A stretch of 64,000 nt of DNA, from sequence record SRR22947727_261. One strand, 5' to 3'. The notes beneath the pieces were generated by a model that saw nothing but the letters and a program-made list of their open reading frames with translations, was not told the DNA's origin and made no database searches. This document shows, piece after piece, positions 34,808-55,882 of this stretch. Position numbers and translations under genes: made by a program. Numbering within the stretch: position 1 is the stretch's first letter; each line of letters starts with the position of its first letter.

Positions 34808-34832
34808 AAAAAAGGGGCTTAAAAGCCCCTTT
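34808..34832. terminator. bidirectional Rho-independent terminator
   Basis: aaaaaaGGGGCT-taaa-AGCCCCttt between convergent genes. Confidence 0.85.
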
Positions 34833-34848
34833 ATTTATTATGTCTATT

Positions 34849-35226: not shown

Positions 35227-35325
35227 TTTTTTCTCCCTATTAAAATTAACTAAGATTAATAATATTATATTTATGTTTAATTTTGTTACAAATATTTATA
35301 TACATTATAGATATAATGTCTTTAT

Positions 35326-38615: not shown

Positions 38616-38698
38616 AACAGTTAATATAAGTTACTTTATATAAATAGTGTAATTAATTTACCTTAAAAAGAAGGGTTTTTTCTGTATATGAATACATA

Positions 38699-38726
38699 GC
38701 TTCGCATAATATATATTATGTTAAAT
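38699..38726 (+). other. dif: dif site (XerC/XerD chromosome dimer resolution)
   Basis: GCTTCGCATAA-TATATA-TTATGTTAAAT. The XerD arm is identical to E. coli dif (GGTGCGCATAA TGTATA TTATGTTAAAT) and the XerC arm matches 9/11. Intergenic. Confidence 0.92.
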
Positions 38727-38745
38727 TATAGGGATTAGAATATAG

Positions 38746-39600
38746 CTATAAAGATACTAAAAAGTCTTTAATGTGCCTTGTAATATCCTCTGGAGAGTCT
38801 TCTTGGATGAAATGGTTACCTTCTACGGTTACTTCTTTAATATTAGTCCAACTCCTAACTTCATCTCTTTGCGTTCCAACTAACAAGAACCCTGGCTCAG
38901 CATTAATAAATAACTTGGGAATACTTGATGTGCTATGAAAATTTGCATTCATTGTAATCTCGTTATGGGTATCTAACGGATCTTCGTTAAAAGGTATATT
39001 TCTTGGAAAAGTTAAGGTTGGTCGTCTATCTTCTCCTGAGTTAATAAACGGTCTTAAATATTCGTTTCTTGTTTCATCTGACATAGGCTTAATAGGATCA
39101 TTTAATAAGATTCTTTCTACAAAGAAATTTTTGTCTAAAATTAGTTCTTCTCCAGCATCTGATCTAAATAACTTAAATATTTTTTTACCAGCTTCAGGCC
39201 ATTGATCCCAAGTTAATGGAACCGTAACTCCTTCCATAAAAGTTATTGAAGAAATACTATCTGAGTTTAATCTTGCATACTTTAATCCAAGGCCACAGCC
39301 CCAATCATGGATCACTAAGTGGATTCGCGGACCAAGATCAAGTTTATTTAATAACTCATCCAAATAATCATACTGACCATTAAAGCTATAACCTGGGTTA
39401 TCTATACCATCAAGCTTCTCAGAGTCTCCCATGCCAATAAGATCTGGAACAATTACCCTATAAGATTGATTGAAATTTGGGGCTATATTTCTCCATAAAT
39501 ATGACGAAGTAGGATTTCCGTGGATAAATACAATTGCATCACCCTCACCCTCATCTATGTAGGCTAAATTCTTACCTTTAACTTTGAGAAAATTCTTCAA
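38746..39600 (-). CDS. dhaA: haloalkane dehalogenase (LinB/DhaA-type)
   Basis: HGNPTSSYLWRN, PDLIGMGDS, nucleophile IHDWG, FMEG acid, NFFVE, RRPTL, GNHFIQED. Confidence 0.92.
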   Translation of the reverse strand: MKNFLKVKGKNLAYIDEGEGDAIVFIHGNPTSSYLWRNIAPNFNQSYRVIVPDLIGMGDSEKLDGIDNPGYSFNGQYDYLDELLNKLDLGPRIHLVIHDWGCGLGLKYARLNSDSISSITFMEGVTVPLTWDQWPEAGKKIFKLFRSDAGEELILDKNFFVERILLNDPIKPMSDETRNEYLRPFINSGEDRRPTLTFPRNIPFNEDPLDTHNEITMNANFHSTSSIPKLFINAEPGFLLVGTQRDEVRSWTNIKEVTVEGNHFIQEDSPEDITRHIKDFLVSL

Positions 39601-39601
39601 A

Positions 39602-39916
39602 TTACTTTCTTGGAGGCATTCCTTTTACGCGTTGCAGCGTAAAATCGGTTGCAGCTCTTCTATGCTTGCTTAACTCTTGGTAACCCTCATCAGCCCACCA
39701 ATTATCAGCATCTTCTTCAGATGGGAACGAAAAGATAATAGCTCTTCCTGGAATTGGTTCTATGCCCTCTAAAACTACTCGATTATCATCATAGGTAATA
39801 AATGATCCGTTATGCTTTTTCAAATAAGAAAAGAAACCTTTTTCATATATTCGGTATTCATCTGGATCATTGATAGTTAAATTAACCACTATGTATACGG
39901 TTATGTCAGCTGACAT
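39602..39916 (-). CDS. DUF1330-family protein
   Basis: YIVVNLTINDPDEYRIY, LEG, FPSEE.A..WW...YQ....R. Confidence 0.85.
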   Translation of the reverse strand: MSADITVYIVVNLTINDPDEYRIYEKGFFSYLKKHNGSFITYDDNRVVLEGIEPIPGRAIIFSFPSEEDADNWWADEGYQELSKHRRAATDFTLQRVKGMPPRK

Positions 39917-41189
39917 TATTTTCTCCTTTTAATTTTAAGTTATTGTTCTCTAGATTAATAAAATTGTAAACAGCTGCAGCGCATGATTCAGGATTTTCGA
40001 TAACGTTAAAATGTGCAGATTCTGGTATTAGGCAAAATCTACTAAATTTTGATCCAACTTTTGTTTGTATCATTTTGTAAGTATTTTTATCAGTAATGAA
40101 CTGACTTTGGCAAGCAACTCCTGAGGATTGATAAATAGCGCCTGGATAAATATCCTCTATCTCATTTTTATATAAATTATATTTACCAAAATATGGTTGA
40201 TCTGAAATGAGAACTCCATTTGGAGCTTCCTTAAATTCATCTTCACCTTGGAATTGCATGATAGGTATATTTATATCCTTGAATTTATTTCTATTCTCAA
40301 CCTCGAAGCTCAAACCACCTTGCATCAAAGACTGTTTAAACTTATTGAAGTAGCTTTTATAAGCAACTTGAGATGTAAGTTTTAAATGGGTATATCTATC
40401 AAACAAATGTGTGCCCTTCTTAGCTTTTCTAGCCTTACTAACAAAACCTTGAGAAAGAAGTTGTATGGGTCTGTTTAAAAAGATAACAGCAAATAGAAGA
40501 AGTCTTAATTGATGATATGAGGCCATGATGCTATGAGGAGGACCTACAAGTACTTTTGGTGCTAGTTTTCTCCATTGTGGCTCGTAATGATTCCAAACTT
40601 GAGAACCTCTTGAATAAGATAAAACTTTGTCAGGGCTATCTATGCAAAGATTTTCAAGTATCACTGCTCCCCTGTCATGTCCTACTAAATGAGCCGCATC
40701 TATATCCATTTCATTCATCAATAATTTTATAGTTTTAGACTGATTTACATGACTATACTTCGGATCTACTTTTAATTTAGAAAAATCTATTATTTTCTTG
40801 CTAGTTAAACTTTCTCCATTTGATATTGCTAATGAATTTGAAACATCAATATTAAAATGATCTTCATAATATGGCATATTAAATATTATTATTCTCAGTG
40901 AATTATCGATTGTATTTAGACAATCTGCCATCCAGGACATAGACTTAAGCGGGTCTGTAGGTATTCCTCCAATTAATATTAGAGTTTTTTCCTTAACAGC
41001 ATCTTTATTTCCAATTTCCCATACTGAGTGATCTTCATTGTTAATAGTAACAAAATATTTCCTAAAATTTGAAAGCTCTATTAAGGGTTTATAAAAGAGC
41101 TTTTCTCTTGAAAATATTCTTAAATAAACATAAGAGTCGATGAATATAAAAATAAAATATGTGAATCCTTTTAGAAAAAAATCCACCAT
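39906..41189 (-). CDS. divergent alpha/beta hydrolase with Asp nucleophile (epoxide hydrolase/haloacetate dehalogenase-like) and N-terminal TM segment
   Basis: LVGHDRGA nucleophile elbow, IMQFQGEDE, IPESAHFNVIENPE. Confidence 0.7.
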   Translation of the reverse strand: MVDFFLKGFTYFIFIFIDSYVYLRIFSREKLFYKPLIELSNFRKYFVTINNEDHSVWEIGNKDAVKEKTLILIGGIPTDPLKSMSWMADCLNTIDNSLRIIIFNMPYYEDHFNIDVSNSLAISNGESLTSKKIIDFSKLKVDPKYSHVNQSKTIKLLMNEMDIDAAHLVGHDRGAVILENLCIDSPDKVLSYSRGSQVWNHYEPQWRKLAPKVLVGPPHSIMASYHQLRLLLFAVIFLNRPIQLLSQGFVSKARKAKKGTHLFDRYTHLKLTSQVAYKSYFNKFKQSLMQGGLSFEVENRNKFKDINIPIMQFQGEDEFKEAPNGVLISDQPYFGKYNLYKNEIEDIYPGAIYQSSGVACQSQFITDKNTYKMIQTKVGSKFSRFCLIPESAHFNVIENPESCAAAVYNFINLENNNLKLKGENNVS

Positions 41190-42677
41190 TTAATTATCAT
41201 TTTTTGGGAAGCCTAAATCTACCTTACTATCAGCTGGATTAGGCCATCTTGAAGCAATTGATTTGGTTTTTGTATAAAACTCTATTGAAGAGTTCCCAAA
41301 AGCCTTGGTTTCTGAAAAACCGCTATCTTTCCAACCGCCAAAACTGTGTGAGTATGTAGGAAGAGGAATTGGAACATTGATACCAACTGATCCAGCTTGA
41401 ACTTCGTTAGCCCATTTTTGAGCAACTCCGCCATCACGAGTAAATAAAGCAGCTCCATTACCAAGCTTATGACCATCGGTGATATCCATCGCTTCTTCAT
41501 ATGATTTAGCTCTAACAAAACATAAAACAGGACCAAATATCTCGTTTTCGTAAACAGACATCCCAGGTTTTACATGATCAATTAGAGTAGCACCAACAAA
41601 AGAGCCCTCCTCCTTATCAGACAAAGGTCTTCCATCAACAACTAAAGTTGCCCCGTCAGGTTCTGCTGAATCTATGAAGGCATATATACGATCTTTATTT
41701 TCTTGAGATATAACTGGGCCTAGTTGCGTATCAGGATTATCTGTTTTACCCATTATAAGACTGGGCATTCTTTCTTTTATTTTCTCTACTAATTCATCAC
41801 CAATATCACCCACAGCAACAACAACAGAAACGGCCATACATCTTTGTCCAGCGGCTCCAAAGCTTGCCGAAACAGCTGCATCAGCAGCCATATTAAGGTC
41901 AGCATCTGGCAGGACAACCATATGATTTTTACCTCCACCAAGAGCTTGCACTTTAGTATTATTCTCAACTCCTAAAATTTTTAAACTTTTTGCCACAGGC
42001 GTACTTCCTATAAACGCTAAACCGGCTACTTTTTCATGACAAACTAATTGCTCAACAATATCCTTGCCGCCATTTAAGACGTTATAACAACCATCTGGGA
42101 AACCAGATTCTTTAAATATATCTGCATACAATCTTGATATTGACGGAACCTTTTCACTGGGTTTAGCAATAAATGTATTACCAGTTACTATAGCCATAGA
42201 GGCATGAAGTATAGGTATCAATATTGGAAAATTAAATGGTCCACAACCAACAACGACTCCAATTGGATACCTAACATCTGTTATATCTATTCCTCCTGCA
42301 ACATTAGGACTCATAATAGATGGATAAAAATGTTGAACACCAGCAGTATGAGTAAGTGCTTGAATAGCTCTGTCTAATTCTGCCTCAGCATCAGGCCGTG
42401 TTTTACCTGCCTCACTTACACAAATATTAATGATTTCGTCAGATCTATTAATAATTCCTTGTCTTAATTTTAATATTAATTCAGCTCTATAACTTAAACC
42501 TGTTTTAGACCAAGTTTTAAACTGTTTAGCTGCTGCATCAATGGCATTATTAGCACTATCCTTGGTAGCATATAGAACTTCACCTATATCAGTCCCGTAT
42601 GATGGATTTATAATAGCTATTGACTCGTTAGACTCAGAGCATTCTTTGCCATTTATATAATTTGTTACTTGATACAT
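41190..42677 (-). CDS. mmsA: CoA-acylating (methyl)malonate-semialdehyde dehydrogenase
   Basis: PFNFP, KPSEK, FIGST, GGKNH, AGQRCMA, EIFGPV, INVPIPLP, SFGGWK. Confidence 0.9.
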   Translation of the reverse strand: MYQVTNYINGKECSESNESIAIINPSYGTDIGEVLYATKDSANNAIDAAAKQFKTWSKTGLSYRAELILKLRQGIINRSDEIINICVSEAGKTRPDAEAELDRAIQALTHTAGVQHFYPSIMSPNVAGGIDITDVRYPIGVVVGCGPFNFPILIPILHASMAIVTGNTFIAKPSEKVPSISRLYADIFKESGFPDGCYNVLNGGKDIVEQLVCHEKVAGLAFIGSTPVAKSLKILGVENNTKVQALGGGKNHMVVLPDADLNMAADAAVSASFGAAGQRCMAVSVVVAVGDIGDELVEKIKERMPSLIMGKTDNPDTQLGPVISQENKDRIYAFIDSAEPDGATLVVDGRPLSDKEEGSFVGATLIDHVKPGMSVYENEIFGPVLCFVRAKSYEEAMDITDGHKLGNGAALFTRDGGVAQKWANEVQAGSVGINVPIPLPTYSHSFGGWKDSGFSETKAFGNSSIEFYTKTKSIASRWPNPADSKVDLGFPKNDN

Positions 42678-42713
42678 ATTGAATTCCTAACAGTATAATT
42701 TGTTATATTTATA

Positions 42714-42741
42714 TTGACTATCCTAACCACTTGACTAAACT
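42714..42741 (+). promoter_or_regulatory. promoter and operator in the divergent mmsA/hydroxylase intergenic region
   Basis: TTGACT (42714-42719), 16 bp, TAAACT (42736-42741). TAACCA-CT-TGACTA at 42724-42737 has a reverse complement matching the 49222-49235 site at 12/14. Confidence 0.55.
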
Positions 42742-42773
42742 TAATCAATAAAATTTATGTATATATATATTAA

Positions 42774-44339
42774 ATGCATTTCGATATAGCAATAATTGGT
42801 TATGGCCCTGTTGGAGCAGTAGCTGCTAATATGTTTGGAGCTAGCGGTCATAATGTTGTTGTTGTTGAACCAAAAAAAGATATATGGGATATACCTCGAG
42901 CTGTTGCTCTTGATGGGCAAACTCAAAGAATTTTTCAGTCAATGGGAATTATTAATGATATCGCCAGAACTTCATTCGAAGGACTTAAATTTATAAATAA
43001 AAAAGGTAAAGAGATCGTTTATGTTGACTTTTCAAACAATCCTCAACCCAATGGATACTATGAAACTGTTGGATTTAGTCAACCTAATCTTGAAAAAGAT
43101 TTGAGATCTATAGCGTCAAAATATGAAAATATAACTTTTAAATTAGGTGAGTCCCTTTCAGGACTATCCTCAGAAGTTAATAATAATTATTTAACTATAA
43201 CTAACCTAGACACAGGTGAAGAAGAGAAAATTTCATCAACTTATGTATTAGCATGTGATGGTGCTAATAGTTTTGTAAGACAAAAGCTTAATATAAAATC
43301 CTTTGATTATAAATGTGATCAAGATTGGATTGTTGTAGATTATGAAATAGATCCTAAATATAAAATTTTAGCAGGCCCTATGCATATATGTGATTATCAT
43401 AGACCTACAACCCTTGCACACATTGAAGGACAACACATTAGATGGGAATTTAAATTTAATGAAGGCGACGATGTTAATGAAATAGAAAAGCATAGCTCAA
43501 TTCGTTCAATGATGAAAAAACATGCATGGCGACTAAATCCTGATATTGATATCAATACTGGCAATATACTTAGAGCTAGTAAATATACTTTTCATGGGCT
43601 TGTTGCAGAAACCTTTAAGTCAAATAATTGTTTTTTTGTTGGAGACTCAGCCCATCAAATGCCCCCCTTTCTTGGTCAAGGTTTGTGTCAAGGAATAAAG
43701 GATGTCTATAACCTTCATTGGAAGTTAGATGGTGTGATTAGAGGTAAGTATGCTGACAAGGTATTAGAAACATATTCTGATGAGCGAATATCAATTGTTA
43801 AATTAGTTACTGAAACTGCTATTAAACATGGCGGGGTTATTGGAACTCAGAATAAATATATAGCTTTAATTAGAGATACATTGCTTAATGTGGCTAGAAT
43901 TTTTCCAAAATTATTAAGCTTTTTTGATTTTTATCACCCTTGGCAAATTACTAATGGGTTGATAGATAAGTCCTTATATCCCAACAAAGCAAATGGGATT
44001 GTTATATCCCAACCGAATTTAGATTTTAAAGTAGATAATAAATCGTTTGATCAATACATTGGTTATAACTTCGCATTAATAGTGTTTGATCAAAATGAAA
44101 AATTACTTAATGATATTAAAGCCCTAGAAAGCTCAAAAATATTTGAAGATAATATTTATTTAATAAATAAAGATAGTCCATTTAATAAAGATAGTAATTT
44201 TATAAAGTGGAAAAGAGATAATAAAATTTCAGCAGTTATAATACGACCAGACAGGCATGTATATGGATGTTGTGATAATGAATCAATGATTACAAAAGTT
44301 GATGAATTAAATAAAAAATTAATAAGTGAGCTAACATGA
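42774..44339 (+). CDS. FAD-dependent aromatic hydroxylase (MhpA-like)
   Basis: GYGPVG, PRAVALD, CDGANS, GDSAHQMPPFLGQG, IRPDRHVYG. Confidence 0.9.
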   Translation: MHFDIAIIGYGPVGAVAANMFGASGHNVVVVEPKKDIWDIPRAVALDGQTQRIFQSMGIINDIARTSFEGLKFINKKGKEIVYVDFSNNPQPNGYYETVGFSQPNLEKDLRSIASKYENITFKLGESLSGLSSEVNNNYLTITNLDTGEEEKISSTYVLACDGANSFVRQKLNIKSFDYKCDQDWIVVDYEIDPKYKILAGPMHICDYHRPTTLAHIEGQHIRWEFKFNEGDDVNEIEKHSSIRSMMKKHAWRLNPDIDINTGNILRASKYTFHGLVAETFKSNNCFFVGDSAHQMPPFLGQGLCQGIKDVYNLHWKLDGVIRGKYADKVLETYSDERISIVKLVTETAIKHGGVIGTQNKYIALIRDTLLNVARIFPKLLSFFDFYHPWQITNGLIDKSLYPNKANGIVISQPNLDFKVDNKSFDQYIGYNFALIVFDQNEKLLNDIKALESSKIFEDNIYLINKDSPFNKDSNFIKWKRDNKISAVIIRPDRHVYGCCDNESMITKVDELNKKLISELT

Positions 44340-44947
44340 ACAAAGTATCTAAATTAAAAACAATTAAAAGTAATAAAACAAAAGGCAGACAGAATGTTGA
44401 GAAGAAATTAATTGAATCAGCTGCAGTGCTTGTTGGTTCTATAGGACCAAATCAATTAACTATTAGAGATATAGCAGATCATGCAGGAGTAAATCATGCT
44501 CAAATACACCACTATTTTGGTGGTAAAGATGGACTTCTTACAGCTACATATAAGTTACTTGCTTTTGAACATATAGAGCAATTACAAAGAAGAAATGTTT
44601 CGGTTGATAATTTGATTAACGAGCCTCTGGGAGATATCACAAACAATTACTTTAAAGCAATCATCAGAGCAGTGCTAGACAATCGCATGGACTTGGTTAG
44701 AGTGCAGGTTGATTCAAATTTATCTATGTCTATAAAAACCCTAGATCAGTTAGTTAAGTTGAAAAATGAAAAAAAACCAACAGCTGAGATGAAAGCCGCA
44801 ATTGCAATAGTTATGGTTGTAGAATTCGGCCTTGCATCAATGAAGCCATATATTATGGAAGTTTTGGATATCAATGAAAAAGAAATGAAAAAATTCATGG
44901 ATTTTTTCTTTAAAGCAAGACAATCGGGTTTAAATGAAGTTTTATAA
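44336..44947 (+). CDS. TetR-family transcriptional regulator
   Basis: LTIRDIADHAGVNHAQIHHYFGGKDGL helix-turn-helix. Confidence 0.92.
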   Translation: MNKVSKLKTIKSNKTKGRQNVEKKLIESAAVLVGSIGPNQLTIRDIADHAGVNHAQIHHYFGGKDGLLTATYKLLAFEHIEQLQRRNVSVDNLINEPLGDITNNYFKAIIRAVLDNRMDLVRVQVDSNLSMSIKTLDQLVKLKNEKKPTAEMKAAIAIVMVVEFGLASMKPYIMEVLDINEKEMKKFMDFFFKARQSGLNEVL

Positions 44948-46484
44948 TTATTTACTATTATTTTTTACTCTGTCTATATATGGTCAACCCAATGTAATAA
45001 TAATCCTCACTGATGATCTTGGCTGGGGAGATGTTTCATATCATGGTGGATTTATACCAACTCCAAATATTGATAAGTTTGTTTCTAATGGTATTGAATT
45101 AAATAGGTTTTATGCTAATCCGACATGTAGTCCTACTAGAGCGTCATTATTAACAGGACTTCATATATTTAATCATGGAGTTATTAGGCCCTTCATGAAC
45201 CCATCAGCTGAACAAACAGGTCTACCCGAACATCTAAAAATAATGCCAGAATATTTTAAAGAAGCTGGTTATCAAACAGCATTATCTGGCAAGTGGCATC
45301 TAGGCATGCATAAAGAAGAATATTTACCAACTAATAGAGGTTTTGATTCTAGTTATGGTCATATGTTAGGTGGTATTGGCTATTATGATCATGTTCACAC
45401 CAATAGAATGGACTGGCATAGAGATGGCGTCTCATTAAATGAAGATGGGTACTCTACAGAATTAATAGCTGATGAGGCAATTAATATAATTAAAAATAAA
45501 GATGATGACCGCCCTCTTTTTCTCTATGTTGCATTCAATGCACCTCATACGCCAATTGAGGCACCAGAAGAAGATATTAACAATTTTTTATATATAGAAG
45601 ATGAATTAGATAGAAACTATGCAGCAAACATAAGCAAACTTGATATTGAAATTGGTAGAATTATTAATTCAATAAAAGACTTAGGAATACTTGAAGAAAC
45701 TATAATTATATTTTTAAGTGATAATGGGCCTGTTTTCGATATAAATCCAATAGTTAAAACAATTGCACCTGGTTTAACAAAATCTAAAGGCAGTACCGCT
45801 GGTCTTAGAGGTAGTAAAACTTCAGCTCTTGATGGCGGAATAAGAGTACCTGCAGCTATATGGTGGAAAGGAGTTCTTGAAAAATCAAAATCTGATCAGT
45901 TCATATTTATACAAGATTTACTTCCAACACTCTTAACAGCAACAGGAATTAGTTATGAACAAGATTTTGTCATTGACGGAGTTGATAGATGGGCTAATTT
46001 ACTAACAAATGAAATTACACCACCTGATAATGCATTTGTTGGAAATAAGATTATTTTTGATGAGAGAGCACTCTTTAATAACGATTGGAAGCTTTATTAT
46101 AAAAAACCAGTAATGTTTGATGTAGAAGGTACATTTAAGCTTTTTAATATAGTCAATGATCCTTATGAAAAAGAGGACTTATCAAGTACTGAAATAAATA
46201 TTTTTAATGAAATGAAAGATACTTTAATGAATATTAAAGAGCTTAATAGTATAGGAATAATAGATCCTGTGCATGCCTACTTACATGGCGATACTGAAGG
46301 TGGAGATGTTATAGGCTCACCTTGGTTGGACAGAGATTATGAGCTTAATCAGCCTGTATCAAAGACTGCAGGTTTCTTTATAATGGTGTGGGTTTTAATT
46401 CAATCATTTAAATATCAACTAATAGGACTAATACTTTTTTTTGTAACATGCAGATTTGCATACAAAAGCTACAAAGCTAGATAA
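44934..46484 (+). CDS. Cys-type S1 (aryl)sulfatase with signal peptide and C-terminal membrane anchor
   Basis: PNVIIILTDDLG, CSPTRASLLTG, GKWHLG, NAPHTP, SDNG; hydrophobic C-terminus followed by basic residues. Confidence 0.92.
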   Translation: MKFYNYLLLFFTLSIYGQPNVIIILTDDLGWGDVSYHGGFIPTPNIDKFVSNGIELNRFYANPTCSPTRASLLTGLHIFNHGVIRPFMNPSAEQTGLPEHLKIMPEYFKEAGYQTALSGKWHLGMHKEEYLPTNRGFDSSYGHMLGGIGYYDHVHTNRMDWHRDGVSLNEDGYSTELIADEAINIIKNKDDDRPLFLYVAFNAPHTPIEAPEEDINNFLYIEDELDRNYAANISKLDIEIGRIINSIKDLGILEETIIIFLSDNGPVFDINPIVKTIAPGLTKSKGSTAGLRGSKTSALDGGIRVPAAIWWKGVLEKSKSDQFIFIQDLLPTLLTATGISYEQDFVIDGVDRWANLLTNEITPPDNAFVGNKIIFDERALFNNDWKLYYKKPVMFDVEGTFKLFNIVNDPYEKEDLSSTEINIFNEMKDTLMNIKELNSIGIIDPVHAYLHGDTEGGDVIGSPWLDRDYELNQPVSKTAGFFIMVWVLIQSFKYQLIGLILFFVTCRFAYKSYKAR

Positions 46485-47139
46485 TTTCACAAACCTCCTC
46501 AAAATCTAAGCGTGGAAGCCTCATAAATATTTTAGATGGGTCTCCATATCCAATACAGCAAAGAAAGTTTGATTTTATATTCGTTCCGTTAAAAAATATC
46601 TCATCAACCATTGCATTATTAAATCCAGACATAGGCCCACAATCTAAACCTAAAGCTCTTGATACCATCATAAAATAAGCACCTTGAAGACTACTGTTTC
46701 TAAAAGCAGTTGAATGATTCATTATTTCATTTCCTTTATACATCGGCGCAACGTCCATATGAGGAAACAGTTTGCCCATATTGTCAGAAAAATCTAAATC
46801 AAATCCTATAATCGCAATAACAGGAGCAGACATAACTTTATCTATATTATTAGGTAAAAGAGATTCTTTGAGTTTAAGTTTTTGTTCCTCACTTTTTATA
46901 AATTTAAATCGGGCAGGACAGCAATTAGTGCTTGTTGGACCCATTTTTGTAAGTTCATAAATTGATCTAATTAATTCATCAGAGACATCTTTATCTTGCC
47001 AACCATTCATACTTCTTGCTTCACCAAACAATAAATTTAACTGAGATTCAGTTAATGAATCAGTATTATTTTTTAAATTAGAAAAAGTTTCTTGTGCAGC
47101 AGCAACTGCTTTTTTTTGATCATCAGTTAATTCAGTCAT
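46477..47139 (-). CDS. rutE: RutE-like nitroreductase-family malonic semialdehyde reductase
   Basis: LFGEARS, GPTSTNCCPARF, AFRNSSLQGAY, LGLDCGPMSGF, RLPRLDF. Confidence 0.85.
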   Translation of the reverse strand: MTELTDDQKKAVAAAQETFSNLKNNTDSLTESQLNLLFGEARSMNGWQDKDVSDELIRSIYELTKMGPTSTNCCPARFKFIKSEEQKLKLKESLLPNNIDKVMSAPVIAIIGFDLDFSDNMGKLFPHMDVAPMYKGNEIMNHSTAFRNSSLQGAYFMMVSRALGLDCGPMSGFNNAMVDEIFFNGTNIKSNFLCCIGYGDPSKIFMRLPRLDFEEVCEII

Positions 47140-47141
47140 TA

Positions 47142-48242
47142 TTATTCCTCACTAGTAGAAGCTTTAGCAGCTATTTCCATTTCTTTAATCATTCCCGGTA
47201 TTGTTGGATTTTCAGCTCTAGCTTTGTCAATTTGATCAACAGGCATAGTTATACCAAATGTATTTGGTACCTCTGGTCCATATTGAGCCATTGCTAAATC
47301 TCTGAATCCTGAATTTTCGGTTGGAACTGAAGCATCTATTAGATCTCCATCCGTCCAATGTTCATGAGTAAACCCATGCGGGTCTCGCCAATAATCATAC
47401 ATCTGACTACCAAGTAAATGTCTGCCTATACCCCATTCATGATAGTACTCATCAATTGTTTTCATATGATAGTGGCCAGCCATTAAGTCATCCACCGAAT
47501 CAGTTACTTCATAACCAGCATGTCCATATGCAACAACATCTATATCACCTGGCAAGCCCATATTATTTAAGGTGTGATGATCAACAGGCTTATCTCCCTG
47601 ATTACATCTCATGAAAGCACCCATTGAGTTACCGTCAGGACCAATACAGTTATTACTTGTTAAAAAACCAAGAGTGTTTGCATACCAATCTACAGAGGCT
47701 TGGGGATCTTTACAATTAATAGCGGTATGCCCTAATCTTTTTACTTTTGAAGTTAACTCATACACCCATTTATCTCCATGAACCTGCCATTCATCAGATG
47801 CTCGTCCAAAACGCTGTAATTCATTTTCTCTTTGCTTTGATTGACCTGTATTTAATACTTTTGAAACAATAGCAACAGGTTCTGCAGATACCATTCCGTG
47901 ACAAACCTCAACTTCAATACCGTCAGGATCAATAATAGTAACTTTATGCCCCCCACCAGGCTCATTATTTTTGACAATATCAACATTAAATTCATTAGAT
48001 AAGGCTTCCAAATCAGAATAATTATTAGCTTTATATGCTGACCCTATGTATTTATTTTCATTACCTTTGGTAGCTACATATATATAAGGTGATGTACCTG
48101 TTCCTCTAAAAAAAATACTATTTTCATCTTCATGTGCGAGAATCATTCCAAAATGATTTAAGTATTTCTTTTGGGCCTCAAATTCCTTAAGCTCAAATCT
48201 GACATAAATAATATCAGCTATTTTACATATAGGTTCTTTCAT
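47142..48242 (-). CDS. VOC-fold extradiol ring-cleavage dioxygenase (trihydroxytoluene oxygenase/DntD-like)
   Basis: KRLGH, VDHHT, WGIGRHLLGSQMYDYWRDPHGFTHEHWTDGD. Confidence 0.85.
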   Translation of the reverse strand: MKEPICKIADIIYVRFELKEFEAQKKYLNHFGMILAHEDENSIFFRGTGTSPYIYVATKGNENKYIGSAYKANNYSDLEALSNEFNVDIVKNNEPGGGHKVTIIDPDGIEVEVCHGMVSAEPVAIVSKVLNTGQSKQRENELQRFGRASDEWQVHGDKWVYELTSKVKRLGHTAINCKDPQASVDWYANTLGFLTSNNCIGPDGNSMGAFMRCNQGDKPVDHHTLNNMGLPGDIDVVAYGHAGYEVTDSVDDLMAGHYHMKTIDEYYHEWGIGRHLLGSQMYDYWRDPHGFTHEHWTDGDLIDASVPTENSGFRDLAMAQYGPEVPNTFGITMPVDQIDKARAENPTIPGMIKEMEIAAKASTSEE

Positions 48243-48244
48243 AA

Positions 48245-49105
48245 TTATTTCTCCTCTAGTAGTCTACTAATTTCTGATAAAGCAAGATCTTCATATTTAT
48301 TTGATCCACTTCCGTATAATGATTGTATTTCTATCTCCCATTCACCAGTAACATAATCTAATATTCCCTCTTTATAACTAGGTCGAGCTTGAATAGTTTT
48401 CCAATACTTAGCTAAATTTGGTAAATTCTCACTTGTTAATAGATTGGAAAATCTCATCTCATCTATTCTATGCAGTATGGAGGTCATACAAGAATCAATT
48501 GCTGTGTATTGATCTCCCATCATAAATAGTTTTTTATGATTAAGAATATTCTCAATAGAAATTAGATGTTTTGATAATGCTAAAGCCATTTTTTTACATA
48601 ATTTTTCTGGTGGTTTTCCAAGAACCCTTAATAGGATAAAAATAGGTATTCTTTTTTTTATGGAGTGTTTGGTTGAATAATCCCAAATAACACTCAATAA
48701 AGCTCTTTTACATAAAAGTCTTACTAAAACAGTTGCTGAAATTCCACCAGCTGTTGTACCTAATGTCTCACCTAGTTCTTTATCTTCATCAAGTCTTACA
48801 AAATCTAAAAGATTTTTAAATCTCTCTTGATTTAGATTATTAGGGAAAAGATCTGTACCGTGGGGATGGGTGGAATTAATATGCCTCATTATCTGAATAC
48901 TGTCAGGAATAATATTTCCGTTATCAATCATAGTAGGAACAAGATTTTTAGGATTTAACTTTTTGTACTCTTTTGATAGATGATCCCCTTTTGACTCCAA
49001 ATATAAAAGATTGTACTTGTAAGAAATATTTTTTTCGGACAAAGCAACTCTTGCCATATTTGAAGCAACAGATTCACCATATCCATATAGCTCTATTTTA
49101 TTCAT
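48245..49105 (-). CDS. glutathione S-transferase, long-insert type
   Basis: LY...S..S..ARVAL.EK, LNPKNLVPTM, DS..I, YTAID, ARPSY. Confidence 0.88.
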   Translation of the reverse strand: MNKIELYGYGESVASNMARVALSEKNISYKYNLLYLESKGDHLSKEYKKLNPKNLVPTMIDNGNIIPDSIQIMRHINSTHPHGTDLFPNNLNQERFKNLLDFVRLDEDKELGETLGTTAGGISATVLVRLLCKRALLSVIWDYSTKHSIKKRIPIFILLRVLGKPPEKLCKKMALALSKHLISIENILNHKKLFMMGDQYTAIDSCMTSILHRIDEMRFSNLLTSENLPNLAKYWKTIQARPSYKEGILDYVTGEWEIEIQSLYGSGSNKYEDLALSEISRLLEEK

Positions 49106-49157
49106 TTGATAAGAGTTAATAATTAACTATGAATAAGTAAAACATAAATAACTATTT

Positions 49158-49239
49158 TATCCAACTGGATAGTAAAAAGAAATTACAAAAAAAATTAGCC
49201 ATTTGGATAGTTGTAATTATTTATCCAAGTGGTTAGAAT
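49158..49239. promoter_or_regulatory. three palindromic operators plus the TBDR promoter
   Basis: TATCCA-AC-TGGATA (49158-49171), TAGCCA-TT-TGGATA (49196-49209), TATCCA-AG-TGGTTA (49222-49235). Promoter TTGTAA (49211-49216), 17 bp, TAGAAT (49234-49239). Confidence 0.75.
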
Positions 49240-49278
49240 AAATTAACTATATAAAAAAATATATCCAAGGGGGAATAT

Positions 49279-51708
49279 ATGTCTATTAAAAAAATATTTT
49301 TAACCTCAACTTTTTTTGTTTTCGCAATCTTTTATGTTGAAGATGTGATTTCACAAGAAAGTTCGAACTCTCGACTTGAAGAAGTTGTTGTAACAGCACA
49401 GAAAAAAGAAGAAGGCCTTTCAGAAGTCCCTATTTCAATTCAAGTTTTATCTGATGAGATGATCGAATCTAGAGGTGTAACATCAATGAAACATCTTGCA
49501 GAATACATACCTGGATTACATATATCTAAAGGTGCGGGTGAATGGAATGTATATATGAGAGGAATAGGATCAGGAACAAATAAAGGCTTTTCTCAATCAA
49601 TTACAACTTTTATAGATGGCATGCCAATTACTCAAGGTTCTCAATACTCTTCTCCCCTTATGGATGTTGAGAGAGTTGAGGTTTTGAGAGGAACTCAAGG
49701 TGTTCTATTTGGTAAAAATACTATTGGTGGTGTTATTAATATGGTTAGTAAGTCTCCAACAATTGGCGGTGAAACTGATGGAAACTGGGGTGTTGAATAT
49801 GTCCCTGAATGGAATACAAAAAAATATAACGGAGCTATGAATATTCCTATAAGTGATTCATTTGCAATGAGAATAGCTGTACAAAAAGAAATGTCAGATG
49901 GATGGGTTACAAATGCTTATCAAGATACTGGCAGTAGTCCAGAAAATGAATCTGAGGCAATAAGAGCTACTATGTTGTGGGAATTGGATAATATGGAAGT
50001 AAATTTAAAATTATCTTCTCTAAGCTCAGAAAAAAAAGGCTCAGAAGCTGGTATATATAAATACGAACTCTCAGCACCATTTGGAGCATTAGCAACAGCT
50101 ACACCTCCATATACAGGCACTGTAATTAATTGGAGAATAACCAATGCTTTCTTCTCAGATCAAATTGTAGGAGTTCCTGGCGTAACTTATACAGATAATA
50201 CAACCTATCAAAATCCTACAGGAGGAACTGTTGATTCAGATAACGCAATTTTAAAGCTTTCCTCATCATGGAACGACCATGATGTTGTATCTACAACATC
50301 CTATTCTGTATATGATTATAAGTGGGGTCTTGATGCAGATTTTGGACCGCTTGCTCTAATTGCTGTTGATAATGATGTTGATTTTAAATCTGTAACTCAA
50401 GAAGTAACTATATCTTCACCAGCAGATGATAAGTTTGAATATATTTTTGGTTTTTACTACGATGATATTCATTACGATGGAATCAATGATGGCATGTTTA
50501 ATATGTCTGTTGGTGGCCTTTTTGGACAAGTATTCCCTCTTCCAAATATTTTTGCCCTTCAAACACAGGGAGCCTTTTCTGCAGATTTTGCTGCTACTCA
50601 TACATCTAATGATCAAAACTCTACTACCAAATCAATATTTGCTGAAGGTACTTACTATGTTAATGATAAGTTAACAATTAAAGCTGGTCTTCGTTTATCT
50701 GATGATGAAAAAGATGTTAAAAGTATTCAAGGTATGAGCTCTTCTGCAACTCCTGGAGGGCTGGGACGAGAAAACTTTACTATAGCACCTCCAGTGCTTG
50801 GTGTTTTTAATGCTTTGGTAAGCAGAAAGCCACATAACTTCCCAGTTCAATCTAGATCAGAAAGTCATACAACTCCTTCTTTAAAAGTACTATACGATTA
50901 TTCTGATACTACTCGCCTTTATTTAAGTTATGCAGAAGGTTACAAAATGGGTGGTTTTGATGGTTCTGAAAATGCTCCTCAAATAAACTCCACAACACCT
51001 GGTGATGCATTTCAATTTGATGCTGAAAAAGCTGAAACATTGGAAATTGGTGCAAAAATGGATTTTCCTGATAGAAGTTTAAGAGCTAGTATTTCCTACT
51101 TCTCTACAGATTATACAGATATGCAAGTATCTATTTTTAATGGATCATCTTTCCAGGTTTCCAATGCTGGTGAATCAGAAATAGATGGAGTAGAAGCTGA
51201 ATTTACTTGGGCTCCAACTGATAATATTGTAATAGGGGGTTCTGCTACAACTCTAGATTTTGCTTATGGAGCATATGTTGGTGGATGTACCGCTGATCAA
51301 GAAGTTGCTTATAGACTAGCAAATTTAACTAAAATTGGTTGTGTTCAGAATCAAGCAGGTCAAACTGGTAATAATGCACCAGAACTAGCTGCTTCAATGT
51401 ATGCAAATTATTACAATAATCTAAGTGCAGATTGGGATATGGTGCTTTCAGTTAATGCAAACTATCAAGATGAGGTATATACAAATACTGACAACGATCC
51501 AGATGCCTTTCAAGAAGCTTATACAAAAATCAACCTTAGCGCCTCTTTTGAACATTCTAATGGTTTAAATGTATCTGTATTTGCTAGGAATGTTACAGAT
51601 GAAGTAACTGCTACTCAGCTTTTAGATTTGCCACTAGTACCAGGATCACATTTTGCATTATGGGCTCCAGGTAAAGAAGTTGGTATCTCTGTTAGAAAGA
51701 CTTTTTAA
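49279..51708 (+). CDS. TonB-dependent receptor
   Basis: Signal peptide, TonB box EEVVVTAQK, plug motif VERVEVLRGTQGVLFGKN, terminal Phe. Confidence 0.95.
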   Translation: MSIKKIFLTSTFFVFAIFYVEDVISQESSNSRLEEVVVTAQKKEEGLSEVPISIQVLSDEMIESRGVTSMKHLAEYIPGLHISKGAGEWNVYMRGIGSGTNKGFSQSITTFIDGMPITQGSQYSSPLMDVERVEVLRGTQGVLFGKNTIGGVINMVSKSPTIGGETDGNWGVEYVPEWNTKKYNGAMNIPISDSFAMRIAVQKEMSDGWVTNAYQDTGSSPENESEAIRATMLWELDNMEVNLKLSSLSSEKKGSEAGIYKYELSAPFGALATATPPYTGTVINWRITNAFFSDQIVGVPGVTYTDNTTYQNPTGGTVDSDNAILKLSSSWNDHDVVSTTSYSVYDYKWGLDADFGPLALIAVDNDVDFKSVTQEVTISSPADDKFEYIFGFYYDDIHYDGINDGMFNMSVGGLFGQVFPLPNIFALQTQGAFSADFAATHTSNDQNSTTKSIFAEGTYYVNDKLTIKAGLRLSDDEKDVKSIQGMSSSATPGGLGRENFTIAPPVLGVFNALVSRKPHNFPVQSRSESHTTPSLKVLYDYSDTTRLYLSYAEGYKMGGFDGSENAPQINSTTPGDAFQFDAEKAETLEIGAKMDFPDRSLRASISYFSTDYTDMQVSIFNGSSFQVSNAGESEIDGVEAEFTWAPTDNIVIGGSATTLDFAYGAYVGGCTADQEVAYRLANLTKIGCVQNQAGQTGNNAPELAASMYANYYNNLSADWDMVLSVNANYQDEVYTNTDNDPDAFQEAYTKINLSASFEHSNGLNVSVFARNVTDEVTATQLLDLPLVPGSHFALWAPGKEVGISVRKTF

Positions 51709-51749
51709 TCTTGTACGTCAATAGTTAAGAAATTAATTATTGGTCCCCT

Positions 51750-51784
51750 TAATCATGGTGAGACATTGAGTTTCGCCATGATTA
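51750..51784 (+). other. intergenic RNA stem-loop (mRNA stabiliser or leaky terminator)
   Basis: TAATCATGGTGAGAC-ATTGA-GTTTCGCCATGATTA: 15-bp stem with two G-U pairs that form only in the + strand RNA. Confidence 0.65.
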
Positions 51785-51816
51785 GCTTTAGATATAATAA
51801 TTTTTTAGGAGAAATA

Positions 51817-52728
51817 ATGGGATTTAAGCTAGCAAATATTAATGGTAAATCATCACTTGTTCATGGTGATTCCTATTACGATATTAGTACAATTTCTGAG
51901 GCTAAGATATCATCAGATCCTTCAAGTATATTAAACTCTTTAAGTGATTTGCATGAGTTATCTAGAAAAATTGATAACTTTGAACCAACAGGATTTATAG
52001 AAAATTCGGTGTTAAAAGCACCAATTACAAACTCTAAAAATTGTTTTGCTGTAGGTCTTAATTATAAAGCGCATGCTGAGGAAAGCGGTATGGAAATTCC
52101 TCCATTTCCAATGGTTTTTACTAAACATACTAGTTGTATTGTCGGACCTTTTGATGATATTGAAATGAAAAGTGATATTGTTGATTATGAAGCAGAGCTT
52201 GTTGTTGTTATAGGTAAAGAAGGTAAAAATATATCAAAAGAAAATGCATGGGATCATATAGCTGGATTAACTGTAGGACAAGATATATCTGATAGAGCTG
52301 TTCAATTTCACTCTACCCCACCTCAATTTAATCTTGGTAAATCATTTGATACATTTGGGCCAATAGGTCCTTTCTTAGTATCACCAGATTTAGTCGCTAA
52401 TAAAAATGCAGTTCACCTGGAATGCTATATAAATGATGAATTAAGGCAGGAATCAAGTACCGACGATTTAATATTTACAGTTCCAGATATTATTTCTTAT
52501 ATATCAGAATTCTTAACATTAAATACTGGAGATCTTATATTTACAGGAACACCATCAGGTGTTGGTGCTACTCAGGGTAAATTACTTAAACATGGTGATA
52601 TAGTCACAACATCAATTAAAGAGATTGGGACTATTAAAAATAAGTGTGTCAGAATTAAAGATCATTCAAATATAAGCTTTATGCCAGAATTTTTAAAAGG
52701 AAAAATTCCACCCAATGACGATTCCTAA
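51817..52728 (+). CDS. fumarylacetoacetate-hydrolase-family protein (start moved to ATG 51817)
   Basis: SD AGGAG, VGLNYKAH, DYEAEL, QDISDR, GKSFDTFGPIGP, GDLIFTGTPSGVG. Confidence 0.92.
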   Translation: MGFKLANINGKSSLVHGDSYYDISTISEAKISSDPSSILNSLSDLHELSRKIDNFEPTGFIENSVLKAPITNSKNCFAVGLNYKAHAEESGMEIPPFPMVFTKHTSCIVGPFDDIEMKSDIVDYEAELVVVIGKEGKNISKENAWDHIAGLTVGQDISDRAVQFHSTPPQFNLGKSFDTFGPIGPFLVSPDLVANKNAVHLECYINDELRQESSTDDLIFTVPDIISYISEFLTLNTGDLIFTGTPSGVGATQGKLLKHGDIVTTSIKEIGTIKNKCVRIKDHSNISFMPEFLKGKIPPNDDS

Positions 52729-52805
52729 GTGATTAAAATCAAATTGTTTAATATTGACATGAATAAGTTTACTATTTTTAGATATTGATAATATAAAACC
52801 TTAGT

Positions 52806-53261
52806 TTACTTTGATTTATGAGCTGGGGTGAGATTAGATAATTCAATACCTGCAATTGCACAAATTTCATCTTGATCAGAAACATCGCCTGTAACACCAA
52901 CGGCGCCTATATTCTTACCATCTTTTTGTATCAACATTCCACCAGGTGTTGGAACAAGCTTGCCGCCTGCCATTGTTTGCATTCCAGTGACTGCTGGTGC
53001 TAGTCTTGGCTGACCTTCAAATGTGTCTCGTAATGTATTAGATGAGACGTTAAAAGCTAAACATGTCCATCCTTTTGCATACGCAATATCAGATCTTATT
53101 AGCCCCGAGCCTTCTTCTGACAATGATGCTCTTACAACTCCTGCAACATCAATAACAGTTACAGTTAACGGCATTAAATTTAACTCTCGACCTTTTTTTA
53201 ATGCTTCTTTGCAAATATTTAATGCTTCATCTAAGTTAATCTCACCTGGATTAATTATCAT
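52806..53261 (-). CDS. GlcG/HbpS (DUF336) heme-binding-family protein
   Basis: VTVIDVAG, IAYAKGWT, PGG..I, IGAVGVTG, DEICAIAG. Confidence 0.88.
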   Translation of the reverse strand: MIINPGEINLDEALNICKEALKKGRELNLMPLTVTVIDVAGVVRASLSEEGSGLIRSDIAYAKGWTCLAFNVSSNTLRDTFEGQPRLAPAVTGMQTMAGGKLVPTPGGMLIQKDGKNIGAVGVTGDVSDQDEICAIAGIELSNLTPAHKSK

Positions 53262-53346
53262 AATTATGTCCTATGTCTAATTTATATTAATAATTATATA
53301 GCTATATGAATGCCCTATTAGTAAAAATATAGTTTAAAATGTGTAC

Positions 53347-53565
53347 ATGTCAAAAGAAGATGCATTAGAGTTTGAGGGTGAAGTTATTGAAACTTTACCT
53401 AATACCAAATTTAAAGTAAAACTAGAAAACGATCACGTTATTACTGCACACATTTCAGGAAAAATGCGCAAGCATTACATTCGTATATTAACTGGTGATA
53501 AAGTTAAAGTAGAAATGACTCCTTACGATTTAACTGTAGGAAGAATCACTTTCAGAGGCAGATAA
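53347..53565 (+). CDS. infA: translation initiation factor IF-1
   Basis: [20 protein letters not shown]...[31 protein letters not shown]. Confidence 0.98.
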
Positions 53566-53571
53566 ACCTCT

Positions 53572-54525
53572 TCAACTAGAGATTTTTTCGTCTCTAAAAT
53601 GTAAAAAGAAAAAGTAAGTAGCAAGAGCTGATAGTAAATGCCATATCGAATGTGCTTGAATTATTGAATCTGGTTTACATAAGTTGTGATCTGGAACTCC
53701 AGTAAGCCAAATTGCAAAAGCAGAAAAATATGCAATCATTCCAAGAAAATACCATTTGTAAGTTCTTCTATTAACAGGTTTTTTTGAAGCTAACAAGCCA
53801 GGTAACCAAAATAAGATAACCCACCAATATTCAGAAAAATTATTAAAAACTTCATTTGGTAAAGTTCCAAATAACAATAAAACAATAAACCCAACAAAGC
53901 CTGATAAAAATCTAAATGATGGAGACCAAAATCTATAAAGTGTTTCTGAAATAGCCCACAAGCCTATAGACACTCCAAAAAGATTAAAATTAATTCCTAA
54001 GCCCCAGTCTGTAAACCATCTCCAAATCGAATATATTATTACTATAGATATATAGATTGATAATAATTGTTTAGATGTCCAGCTAGACATACTGTAAATG
54101 TTATAGAGCCATGGAAGTATTATGAACATAATCATACTTAAATTATCAGCCCAACCACCCCATTCAGTATTTGTACCATGCATAAGCATGGAGCCTGGAC
54201 CAAGATAAACTACAACAGATGCATACAGCACAGAAATCGGTGTAATTCCTATAAACGGATTGATAGAGTCCTGTTTGTCATTACAGATCACCCAAAACAT
54301 ATAGAGCCCGGCTACCATAAATCCTAGATTGCTAAGAGTATTAAGTGGTTCTCTAAAAAGACCTCCGGATACCCTCTCACACCACCTAGAAGCTTCTCCA
54401 ATGAGATTAGCAGCCTCAGTAGACTGAATAAGACCAAAAGCACTTAATAAGAAGAAAATTAATAAAAAAGATACAGATACAAATAAGGCTAGATAAAAAA
54501 CATAAAACTTATTAGTTGAGATCAA
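53572..54525 (-). CDS. ceramidase-like (CREST superfamily) membrane hydrolase
   Basis: WCER, EPLNTLSN, GSMLMH, WAD, HSIWH; multiple TM helices. Confidence 0.78.
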   Translation of the reverse strand: MISTNKFYVFYLALFVSVSFLLIFFLLSAFGLIQSTEAANLIGEASRWCERVSGGLFREPLNTLSNLGFMVAGLYMFWVICNDKQDSINPFIGITPISVLYASVVVYLGPGSMLMHGTNTEWGGWADNLSMIMFIILPWLYNIYSMSSWTSKQLLSIYISIVIIYSIWRWFTDWGLGINFNLFGVSIGLWAISETLYRFWSPSFRFLSGFVGFIVLLLFGTLPNEVFNNFSEYWWVILFWLPGLLASKKPVNRRTYKWYFLGMIAYFSAFAIWLTGVPDHNLCKPDSIIQAHSIWHLLSALATYFFFLHFRDEKISS

Positions 54526-55783: not shown

Positions 55784-55807
55784 ATATTTTATTCTACATG
55801 TCTATAT

Positions 55808-55836
55808 AAAAAAAAATAGGGCTATAAAGCCCTATT
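55808..55836 (-). terminator. Rho-independent terminator of etfBA
   Basis: A9 run followed by TAGGGCT-ataa-AGCCCTA (U-tail on minus strand). Confidence 0.8.
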
Positions 55837-55882
55837 AATTAAAATATAAAAATATTTAACTCGATTGCTTGATTTATAAAGT

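Follow-up and report, generated by a model that had tools for sequence, protein, structure and literature searches.

The 64-kb window analysed here (64,000 nt of sequence record SRR22947727_261, in whose coordinates all positions below are given) was identified from its sequence as SAR86 DNA, its sulfatase being 96% and 92% identical to those of two SAR86 metagenome-assembled genomes (MAGs). Between positions 38746 and 53261 it carries a 13-gene island that varies between strains and that we read as serving, under TetR control, the catabolism of an aromatic sulfate ester, a reading to which we give an even chance. Operon structure, a shared operator, co-occurrence and co-loss tie one conserved, membrane-anchored sulfatase clade to genes for aromatic ring cleavage. 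Families were assigned with Pfam and NCBIfam, and all 13 open reading frames (ORFs) were found where the original prediction, made without database searches, had placed them, with each family backed by a Pfam or NCBIfam model; the two divergent promoter regions and the shared operator motif that it had described were likewise present in the motif scans.

The island is organised as four tightly packed transcription units, with a GlcG gene at the far edge. On the minus strand, MmsA, an alpha/beta hydrolase of 427 residues (ABH427), DUF1330 and a haloalkane dehalogenase (HLD) form a unit in which the genes abut or overlap, and a glutathione S-transferase (GST), an extradiol dioxygenase and a RutE-type reductase form another with 2-nt gaps between genes. 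On the plus strand, a FAD-dependent monooxygenase (FADmo), the TetR regulator and the sulfatase form a unit with overlaps of 4 nt (FADmo/TetR) and 14 nt (TetR/sulfatase), and a TonB-dependent outer-membrane receptor (TBDR) is followed by an FAH-family hydrolase. Since the sulfatase, TetR and FADmo genes overlap, the sulfatase is predicted to be translationally coupled to TetR and co-transcribed with the hydroxylase.

For the co-occurrence analysis, the sulfatase was searched order-wide and matched 73 of 201 genomes at E ≤1e-60, 55 of them at E ≤1e-150, while a dioxygenase ortholog (E ≤1e-90) was present in 13 of the 201. All 13 of these dioxygenase genomes hold a sulfatase ortholog on the same contig within 7 kb, and the co-conservation on which the original prediction depended was thereby borne out. 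In the window's own genus, a sulfatase match was found in 4 of 14 genomes, and it is these same four that carry dioxygenase and sulfatase together, the other 10 carrying neither. Twenty of the 55 strong matches, spanning 8 genera and with long contigs preferred, were taken as sulfatase-anchored loci with 9 kb on each side, which held a VOC dioxygenase in 12, FAH in 10, FAD monooxygenase in 11, GST in 15, MmsA in 8 and RutE in 8. At one of them (L086), a co-directional operon SDR-GST-VOC-sulfatase-FADmo-FAH stands behind TetR and a TBDR, and at L093, in another lineage, the sulfatase is found with DUF1330, FAH, a short VOC protein and GST. In an alphaproteobacterial MAG (L008), a pair of formylglycine-generating enzyme (FGE) and sulfatase genes is divergent from TetR-FADmo-FAH-GST-CMD-VOC-DUF1330, and GST and FAH accompany the dioxygenase both in SAR86 variants and in the Alphaproteobacteria L007-L010. 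Sulfatase homologs at ≤41% identity in other phyla (L095-L103) had none of the module neighbours.

A second set of 80 loci, drawn from many phyla, was anchored on the dioxygenase. FAH occurred at 59 of these loci, at 54 of them no more than 3 kb from the dioxygenase; FAD monooxygenase occurred at 55, both at 44 and GST at 12. Of the flanking genes used as controls (peptidase S9, DAO, ceramidase, amidohydrolase), none occurred at any of the 80. The trio of hydroxylase, dioxygenase and FAH was found in Alphaproteobacteria, Streptomyces, Mycolicibacterium and Burkholderia and, since it recurs across these loci, is an old and widespread syntenic unit, to which SAR86 appears to have added uptake, desulfation and semialdehyde disposal.

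The regulator (44336-44947, plus strand; PF00440, E 3.7e-11) overlaps both of its neighbours, and its N-terminal helix-turn-helix, together with a palindrome at the promoters it would regulate, gives the predicted features of a TetR regulon. A scan of the 64 kb with TATCCAASTGGWTA at ≤2 mismatches gave 5 matches at 4 sites (42724, 49158, 49196 and 49222), all four of them inside the two divergent intergenic regions, 42678-42773 (MmsA/FADmo) and 49106-49278 (GST/TBDR); shuffled sequence gave a mean of 2.29 matches anywhere in the window. The shared element is a 14-bp palindrome, TATCCA-NN-TGGATA, with three candidate operator sites in the GST/TBDR region (49158-49171, 49196-49209 and 49222-49235) and one half-conserved candidate in the MmsA/FADmo region (42724-42737, reading TAGTCAAGTGGTTA, with 2 mismatches to consensus). 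The palindrome is kept at equivalent positions in the GST/TBDR region of L083, L084, L087, L089/L001 and SAR86E (L004), and an equivalent site lies in the MmsA/FADmo region of L090; the sharing of one operator between operons, as originally proposed, thus extends to orthologous regions of diverged SAR86 genomes. In two Porticoccaceae loci (L002, L003), whose island proteins are 34-70% identical to those of the window, the cluster intergenic regions hold the co-varying form TAGCCA-NN-TGGCTA. Because the motif is conserved with co-variation across families, there is good evidence that it is a real operator, presumably of the embedded TetR. No operator site was found upstream of GlcG in the same 64-kb scan, and a promoter and terminator scan of this AT-rich DNA gave 60 promoter-like sites against 76.6 expected.

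Strain variation was examined in a near-identical relative, G001 (1.3 Mb, 94% complete), and in G002, a closed 1.3-Mb cluster-bearing chromosome and the genome of locus L084. Window positions 30000-40779 align to G001 C2:124681-135460 at 99% identity and positions 53271-64000 to C2:135447-146176 at 100% identity, and as both flanks match adjacent coordinates of one contig (L104/L105), G001 lacks window positions 40780-53270, a segment of 12.5 kb. The joint lies at a short microhomology (G001 C2:135447-135460), and a remnant of ABH427 of 271 aa, compared with 427 aa in the window, is retained in G001. The polymorphism is a deletion in G001 and not an insertion in the window. The single sulfatase of G001 was considered as a possible island copy and ruled out, being a 30%-identical paralog elsewhere in the genome.

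Two enzymes dedicated to the island bear on its end product. MmsA (41190-42677, minus strand) scored 496.2 bits against a cutoff of 448.5 for TIGR01722, the CoA-acylating (methyl)malonate-semialdehyde dehydrogenase (MMSDH), and the nitroreductase-fold RutE-type malonic semialdehyde reductase (46477-47139, minus strand) scored 272.6 bits against 152 for NF003768. In the closed chromosome G002, the island copy is the only MMSDH above cutoff and likewise the only RutE-type reductase; G001 has neither. Both accompany the dioxygenase in the two Porticoccaceae loci as well. Because MMSDH and the reductase are dedicated to the island, they point to (methyl)malonate semialdehyde as the pathway product, which fits the Dnt lower pathway, where acylpyruvate-type hydrolysis of a hydroxyquinol- or trihydroxytoluene-derived meta-cleavage product yields this compound (PMC10602510).

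For ring hydroxylation and cleavage, the class A FAD-dependent phenol hydroxylase (FADmo, MhpA-like; 42774-44339, plus strand; PF01494, E 2.4e-45) scored 380.9 bits for the MhpA-subfamily model NF004829, just below the cutoff of 390, and its closest solved proteins are all phenol hydroxylases (PnpA, TfdB and phenol 2-monooxygenases). The two-domain type I extradiol dioxygenase of the VOC superfamily (47142-48242, minus strand) was assigned from invariant metal-site residues and a structural model. Across a 26-sequence alignment, H172, H241 and E294 are invariant, as are H222, H223, H275 and Y284; from their spacing relative to BphC numbering, without superposition, we take the former to be the 2-His-1-carboxylate site and the latter the second-sphere His and Tyr residues. 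The AlphaFold model (predicted local distance difference test, pLDDT, 91; predicted template-modelling score, pTM, 0.90) has two tandem domains built of beta-alpha-beta-beta-beta modules, and the Foldseek top matches were PDB 3b59, XylE, LapB, BphC, HsaC and HPCD, with a probability of 1.00 for the last five. The only PDB sequence match was again 3b59 (E 1.5e-15). Homologs are named only 'VOC family protein' or similar, with no functional name; 45 records in a plasmid collection hold homologs at 31-36% identity, also unnamed VOC proteins where annotated, and two Burkholderia neighbourhoods of plasmid-borne homologs gave no functional name either. By sequence and model, the enzyme thus appears to represent an uncharacterised clade of catechol-type extradiol dioxygenases. 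It should cleave beside a vicinal diol, since the model matches catechol-type enzymes with no PcpA or LinE among the top matches listed; a hydroquinone-type (PcpA/LinE) dioxygenase was considered and rejected, none appearing in the PDB sequence search or among those Foldseek matches.

The FAH-family protein (listed at 51766-52728, plus strand; PF01557, E 3.3e-64) is a putative acylpyruvate-type C-C hydrolase, with 6v77 ('putative HpcE', E 2.1e-58), diketo-deoxyrhamnonate hydrolase and the acylpyruvase FAHD1 as its closest solved proteins; maleylpyruvate and fumarylpyruvate hydrolases are also among its relatives. The listed ORF opens with TTG at 51766, and an ATG (M18) lies at 51817. The true start is probably this ATG, as the PDB alignment begins at residue 21.

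The sulfatase (44934-46484, plus strand; PF00884, E 2.4e-59) opens with a signal peptide, carries the motif CSPTR and ends in a hydrophobic tail. The PF00884 domain with CSPTR, as in formylglycine-dependent Cys-type S1 sulfatases, was found in the window's copy and, without exception, in the 28 SAR86 ortholog rows scanned; these rows also keep the signal peptide and the C-terminal anchor, which is missing from all 5 non-SAR86 homologs found at ≤41% identity. The C-terminus (46300-46484) has a conserved W-x-x-x-x-x-F-K core in its anchor in 28 of 28 SAR86 rows. In G002, two adjacent frames of 173 and 260 aa (C1:932347-933427; L109/L110) match the C-terminal and N-terminal halves of the sulfatase domain, respectively, and may be a split or broken second sulfatase gene.

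From these assignments we infer what class of compound is consumed, in which order the enzymes act, what they release and how the regulator works, as follows. The TBDR (49279-51708, plus strand; plug and barrel Pfam domains) would bring the compound into the periplasm, where the sulfatase, tethered to the inner membrane, would strip the sulfate and free a phenolic hydroxyl. The cytoplasmic class A flavin monooxygenase, of a type that needs a free phenol, would then add a hydroxyl to give a catechol- or hydroxyquinol-type ring with a vicinal diol, which the extradiol dioxygenase would open beside the diol. GST, DUF1330 or both may isomerise the ring-fission product before the FAH-family enzyme splits an acylpyruvate-like diketone into pyruvate and (methyl)malonate semialdehyde, which MmsA would turn into acetyl- or propionyl-CoA or which the RutE-type reductase would reduce. 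TetR would bind the 14-bp palindromes in both divergent regions and be released by the substrate or an intermediate. A wider proposal, which we put forward tentatively and with clearly less confidence than the catabolic reading of the island itself, is that SAR86 and, independently, some marine Alphaproteobacteria share an undescribed route for aryl sulfate esters, in which a TBDR and a tethered sulfatase feed a new extradiol clade, a hydroxyquinol-type ring is taken to pyruvate and malonate semialdehyde, and the sulfatase is matured without a known FGE.

For the TBDR, no curated subfamily model reached cutoff. In locus L083 (14307 onward), from a SAR86 MAG, the receptor is only 46% identical to that of the window, with the other island genes 88-99% identical; it was apparently swapped, with the upstream operator sites kept.

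The remaining genes of the island are less uniformly associated with the module. HLD (38746-39600, minus strand), which closes the MmsA operon and is not a constant member of the island, scored 330.9 bits against 241 for NF002938 and matched PDB 7pw1 at E 1.3e-93 and LinB at ~1e-86, the 7pw1 alignment keeping the HGNPTSSYLWRN, HDWG and HFIQED motifs, which we take to hold the catalytic Asp-His-Glu and the halide-binding Asn and Trp. Judged by these matches, it is a genuine haloalkane dehalogenase of subfamily II (HLD-II). Copies at ≥59% identity lie near 7 of the 20 sulfatase orthologs, in several genera, and at none of the 80 dioxygenase-anchored loci; the gene is absent from SAR86E and remains in the deletion strain G001. 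The haloalkane dehalogenase family acts on sp3 carbon-halogen bonds and not on aryl halides, and a separate or side-chain function is possible. The long GST (286 aa; 48245-49105, minus strand; GST_N and GST_C), first gene of the GST-dioxygenase-RutE operon, has a zeta-like N-terminal domain: its PDB matches are zeta GSTs and maleylacetoacetate or maleylpyruvate isomerases over that domain, and its match to maiA covers no more than this domain and scores 65 bits, where the cutoff is 171. Because GST also accompanies the dioxygenase and FAH at loci that lack a dehalogenase, we favour a lower-pathway role as an isomerase or in a thiol-dependent reaction, which is no less likely than dehalogenation.

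The original prediction had suggested that HLD and GST may handle halogen substituents, with sulfated and brominated phenolics of algae or seagrass as plausible substrates. The dehalogenase proved genuine. Given the sp3 chemistry of its family, its absence from SAR86E and from all 80 dioxygenase loci and its persistence in G001, the link to brominated phenols is unsupported and the halogen idea weak, while an algal or seagrass source and bromination are speculation.

ABH427 (39906-41189, minus strand), an orphan, very divergent, membrane-anchored alpha/beta hydrolase that always adjoins MmsA, gave weak matches only (PF00561, E 4.8e-4; BphD, E 0.004 over the nucleophile elbow), and its protein Atlas matches were orphan alpha/beta-hydrolase clusters only. 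G170-H171-D172-R173-G174 and H393 are invariant in 11 orthologs, and since the elbow reads GHDRG, the predicted nucleophile is Asp. A poor model from a 9-sequence alignment (pLDDT 56, with 209 residues below 50) has an N-terminal helix at residues 2-31. DUF1330 (39602-39916, minus strand; PF07045, E 2.3e-21) recurs beside the module in SAR86E, in alphaproteobacterial L008 and at several SAR86 loci. The GlcG/HbpS-like gene at the edge (52806-53261, minus strand; PF03928, E 6.9e-25), another variable member, is present in L084 and near 3 of the 20 sulfatase orthologs and lies inside the segment missing from G001.

Several observations weigh against the reading of the island as an aryl sulfate ester pathway. 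The best solved relatives of the sulfatase are human ARSB (1fsu, E 7.6e-58) and then carrageenan and GalNAc sulfatases (S1_19, S1_16), and Pseudomonas arylsulfatase (PAS) aligns over residues 18-218 only, in the N-terminal half. For these reasons its specificity for aryl sulfates is unproven and a carbohydrate, steroid or alkyl sulfate is possible as its substrate, with the genomic context favouring aromatic substrates. Neither FGE (PF03781) nor anSME (TIGR03942) was found in G002 or G001 by profile search; in alphaproteobacterial L008 an FGE gene adjoins the sulfatase (L008:2696-3715), and the Cys-type sulfatase of SAR86 may be matured by an unknown route, without FGE or anSME. A trihydroxy ring as the substrate of the dioxygenase is a guess, as its family has no characterised member. 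Genomic linkage also has its gaps: at 8 of the 20 sulfatase-anchored loci the 9 kb on each side hold neither a VOC nor an FAH gene, the sulfatase of genus g18 belongs to an HLD-sulfatase-GST operon of overlapping genes that has no ring-cleavage genes close by, and just 8 of the 80 dioxygenase-anchored loci hold a sulfatase, most of those outside SAR86 being without one. An inner-membrane transporter is absent from the island's 13 genes, and ABH427, DUF1330, GST, HLD and GlcG have no role assigned from their sequences. The originally proposed succession of import, desulfation, hydroxylation and meta-cleavage is partly supported, by the co-conservation, the operator, the coupling of the sulfatase gene, the syntenic trio and the dedicated MmsA and RutE; the aryl specificity that it presumed is unproven.

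Other sulfatase contexts were also recorded. At the g18-type operon (L128:8014-11516, also at L129 and L130), the HLD homolog is 59-61% identical to that of the window with an N-terminal extension of ~57 aa, and the GST is of the long type. In genus g12, the sulfatase lies between two TBDRs, near a Rieske oxygenase and GST. At L122 (4530-5729 and 14114-15244), in a SAR86 genus other than that of L128, a sulfatase ortholog between two TBDR genes has a Rieske ring-hydroxylating oxygenase alpha subunit, GST, DUF1330 and a gene of the iron-dependent alcohol dehydrogenase family nearby, a further aromatic context with different oxygenases. In genus g15, it stands beside an alpha/beta hydrolase and Cys/Met pyridoxal-phosphate enzymes.

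Three other explanations were weighed. The island could be two unrelated neighbours, namely a sulfatase/HLD/GST/ABH427 module for sulfated, possibly halogenated aliphatics (for example sulfolipids, sterol sulfates or chlorosulfolipid-like alkyl sulfates) and a separate phenol meta-cleavage module. The g18 operon shows the former set largely by itself, HLD copies recur near the sulfatase at 7 of 20 loci, a genuine HLD-II belongs to the type acting on sp3 carbon-halogen bonds, an Asp nucleophile such as that of ABH427 is typical of epoxide hydrolases and dehalogenases, and aryl specificity is not a trait of the closest solved sulfatases; in print, the arylsulfatases of SAR86 have been interpreted as acting in sulfolipid desulfation (PMC11582366). 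Such a division is hard to square with a sulfatase gene that overlaps TetR and is predicted to be co-transcribed with the hydroxylase, with its position between the dioxygenase and hydroxylase genes at L086, with a sulfatase within 7 kb in 13 of 13 dioxygenase orthologs, with the independent pairing of FGE-sulfatase with the same module in L008, or with a single operator motif serving both divergent regions, and we hold it to be unlikely.

Less probable still is a detoxification island against toxic algal quinones, hydroquinones and halophenols rather than a carbon-source pathway, with the nitroreductase-fold protein reducing quinones, GST acting by conjugation or reduction and the VOC protein opening rings, roles that have reportedly been proposed for the Mhq genes of Bacillus subtilis. 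The GST-VOC-nitroreductase operon does resemble the Mhq set, the island is dispensable and strain-variable, and it lacks an inner-membrane transporter; set against this, the reductase is well above the RutE equivalog cutoff, the island has a CoA-acylating MMSDH and an FAH, which would yield central metabolites and exist nowhere else in the genome, the TBDR implies active uptake, and the dioxygenase is catechol-like, with no PcpA/LinE-type enzyme among the Foldseek top matches listed. The least probable of the three, and in our view very improbable, follows gentisate or homogentisate logic: a maleyl-type enedione would be converted by the zeta-like GST and glutathione to the fumaryl form and split by FAH into fumarate- or pyruvate-type products, leaving MmsA and RutE to serve a side chain. 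It draws on the kinship of the GST N-terminal domain with zeta GSTs and maleylacetoacetate or maleylpyruvate isomerases, on the company that GST and FAH keep with the dioxygenase in SAR86 variants and L007-L010, and on the maleylpyruvate and fumarylpyruvate hydrolases among the relatives of FAH. The match to maiA is nonetheless confined to one domain and far below cutoff, known gentisate and homogentisate dioxygenases are cupins and not VOC enzymes, and malonate semialdehyde as the product accounts better for a dedicated MmsA and RutE.

Beyond the island, the flanks hold housekeeping genes that are unrelated to it (prolyl oligopeptidase, a DAO-family oxidoreductase, ceramidase, amidohydrolase and ETF). 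Two flank ORFs, 34101-34799 (plus strand, 232 aa) and 34849-35226 (minus strand, 125 aa), had no Pfam match at E ≤1e-4.

In the surface ocean, SAR86 bacteria rank among the most abundant heterotrophs; their diet has largely been inferred gene by gene. Aryl sulfate esters are a pool of dissolved organic carbon and sulfur, and reading the island as a catabolic one yields the testable hypothesis that streamlined bacterioplankton use phenolic sulfate esters as a class of substrates. Two further outcomes are an extradiol dioxygenase clade without characterised members and a defined candidate pair of regulator and operator. With its clean 12.5-kb presence/absence polymorphism, the island stands out as flexible gene content that defines a niche. 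As a SAR86 isolate now exists (PMC11582366), the hypothesis is open to testing.

A description of the cluster was not found in the passages of the literature that were searched, though supplements, such as Table S5 of PMC11582366, may list the genes singly. That 2024 comparative paper on SAR86 ascribes sulfolipid desulfation to the arylsulfatases and takes catechol dioxygenases, GSTs and nitroreductases one by one (PMC11582366), and a preprint on polyphenol use in SAR116 describes an intradiol ChqB, with no mention of a sulfatase.

Among known systems, polysaccharide utilisation loci share with the island a TBDR, an exported Cys-type S1 sulfatase and local regulation; they differ in that no SusD-like gene or glycoside hydrolase was found in the 13 genes or the 17 flanking ORFs scanned, the partners here are ring-cleavage enzymes, and the sulfatase is C-terminally anchored. 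The chlorinated hydroquinone pathways (PcpB/PcpC/PcpA and LinB/LinD/LinE) use a flavin monooxygenase, a zeta-like GST, a VOC ring-cleavage enzyme and an HLD-II, families that the island also holds, with LinB matching its HLD as given above. Unlike them, the island has a catechol-type dioxygenase and no maleylacetate reductase. For the dioxygenase itself, the top structural match (3b59; Foldseek E 1.9e-23, template-modelling scores 0.65/0.79) is an Mn(II)-bound 'glyoxalase' of unknown function from Novosphingobium aromaticivorans, 21% identical and without the ~17-residue insertion and the C-terminal helices of the 366-aa SAR86 enzyme.

The closest parallels are two meta-cleavage pathways, likened to the island by family or role. 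DntG of the Burkholderia 2,4-dinitrotoluene pathway belongs to the FAH family, and the island contains all four Dnt-type enzyme families in one predicted regulon with a shared operator. In the Dnt lower pathway, the monooxygenase DntB, the trihydroxytoluene oxygenase DntD, the isomerase/hydrolase DntG and the CoA-dependent methylmalonate-semialdehyde dehydrogenase DntE lead to pyruvate and propionyl-CoA (PMC10602510), four enzyme roles that recur in matching logical order in the pathway proposed for the island. The island in turn has no Rieske dioxygenase and no nitro-group chemistry, its dioxygenase falls in an unnamed VOC clade, and it adds a TBDR, a sulfatase, TetR, GST, a RutE-type reductase, ABH427 and DUF1330. 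HcdABC of Pseudomonas mandelii 7HK4, acting on 7-hydroxycoumarin and 3-(2,4-dihydroxyphenyl)propionate, shares the three-family design of a FAD hydroxylase, a type I extradiol dioxygenase and an FAA-hydrolase-family protein; HcdC, the last of these, splits a 2,4-dihydroxy-6-oxo-dienoate, and HcdB had no activity on 1,2,4-benzenetriol (PMC6222606). It is a three-gene co-directional operon without sulfatase, TBDR, MmsA or RutE, and its products are succinate and an acetylpyruvate-type acid. The design of the SAR86 island is thus that of a known kind of meta-cleavage pathway, Dnt- or Hcd-like, and its configuration, with an uncharacterised dioxygenase clade and a distinctive anchored sulfatase, is new.

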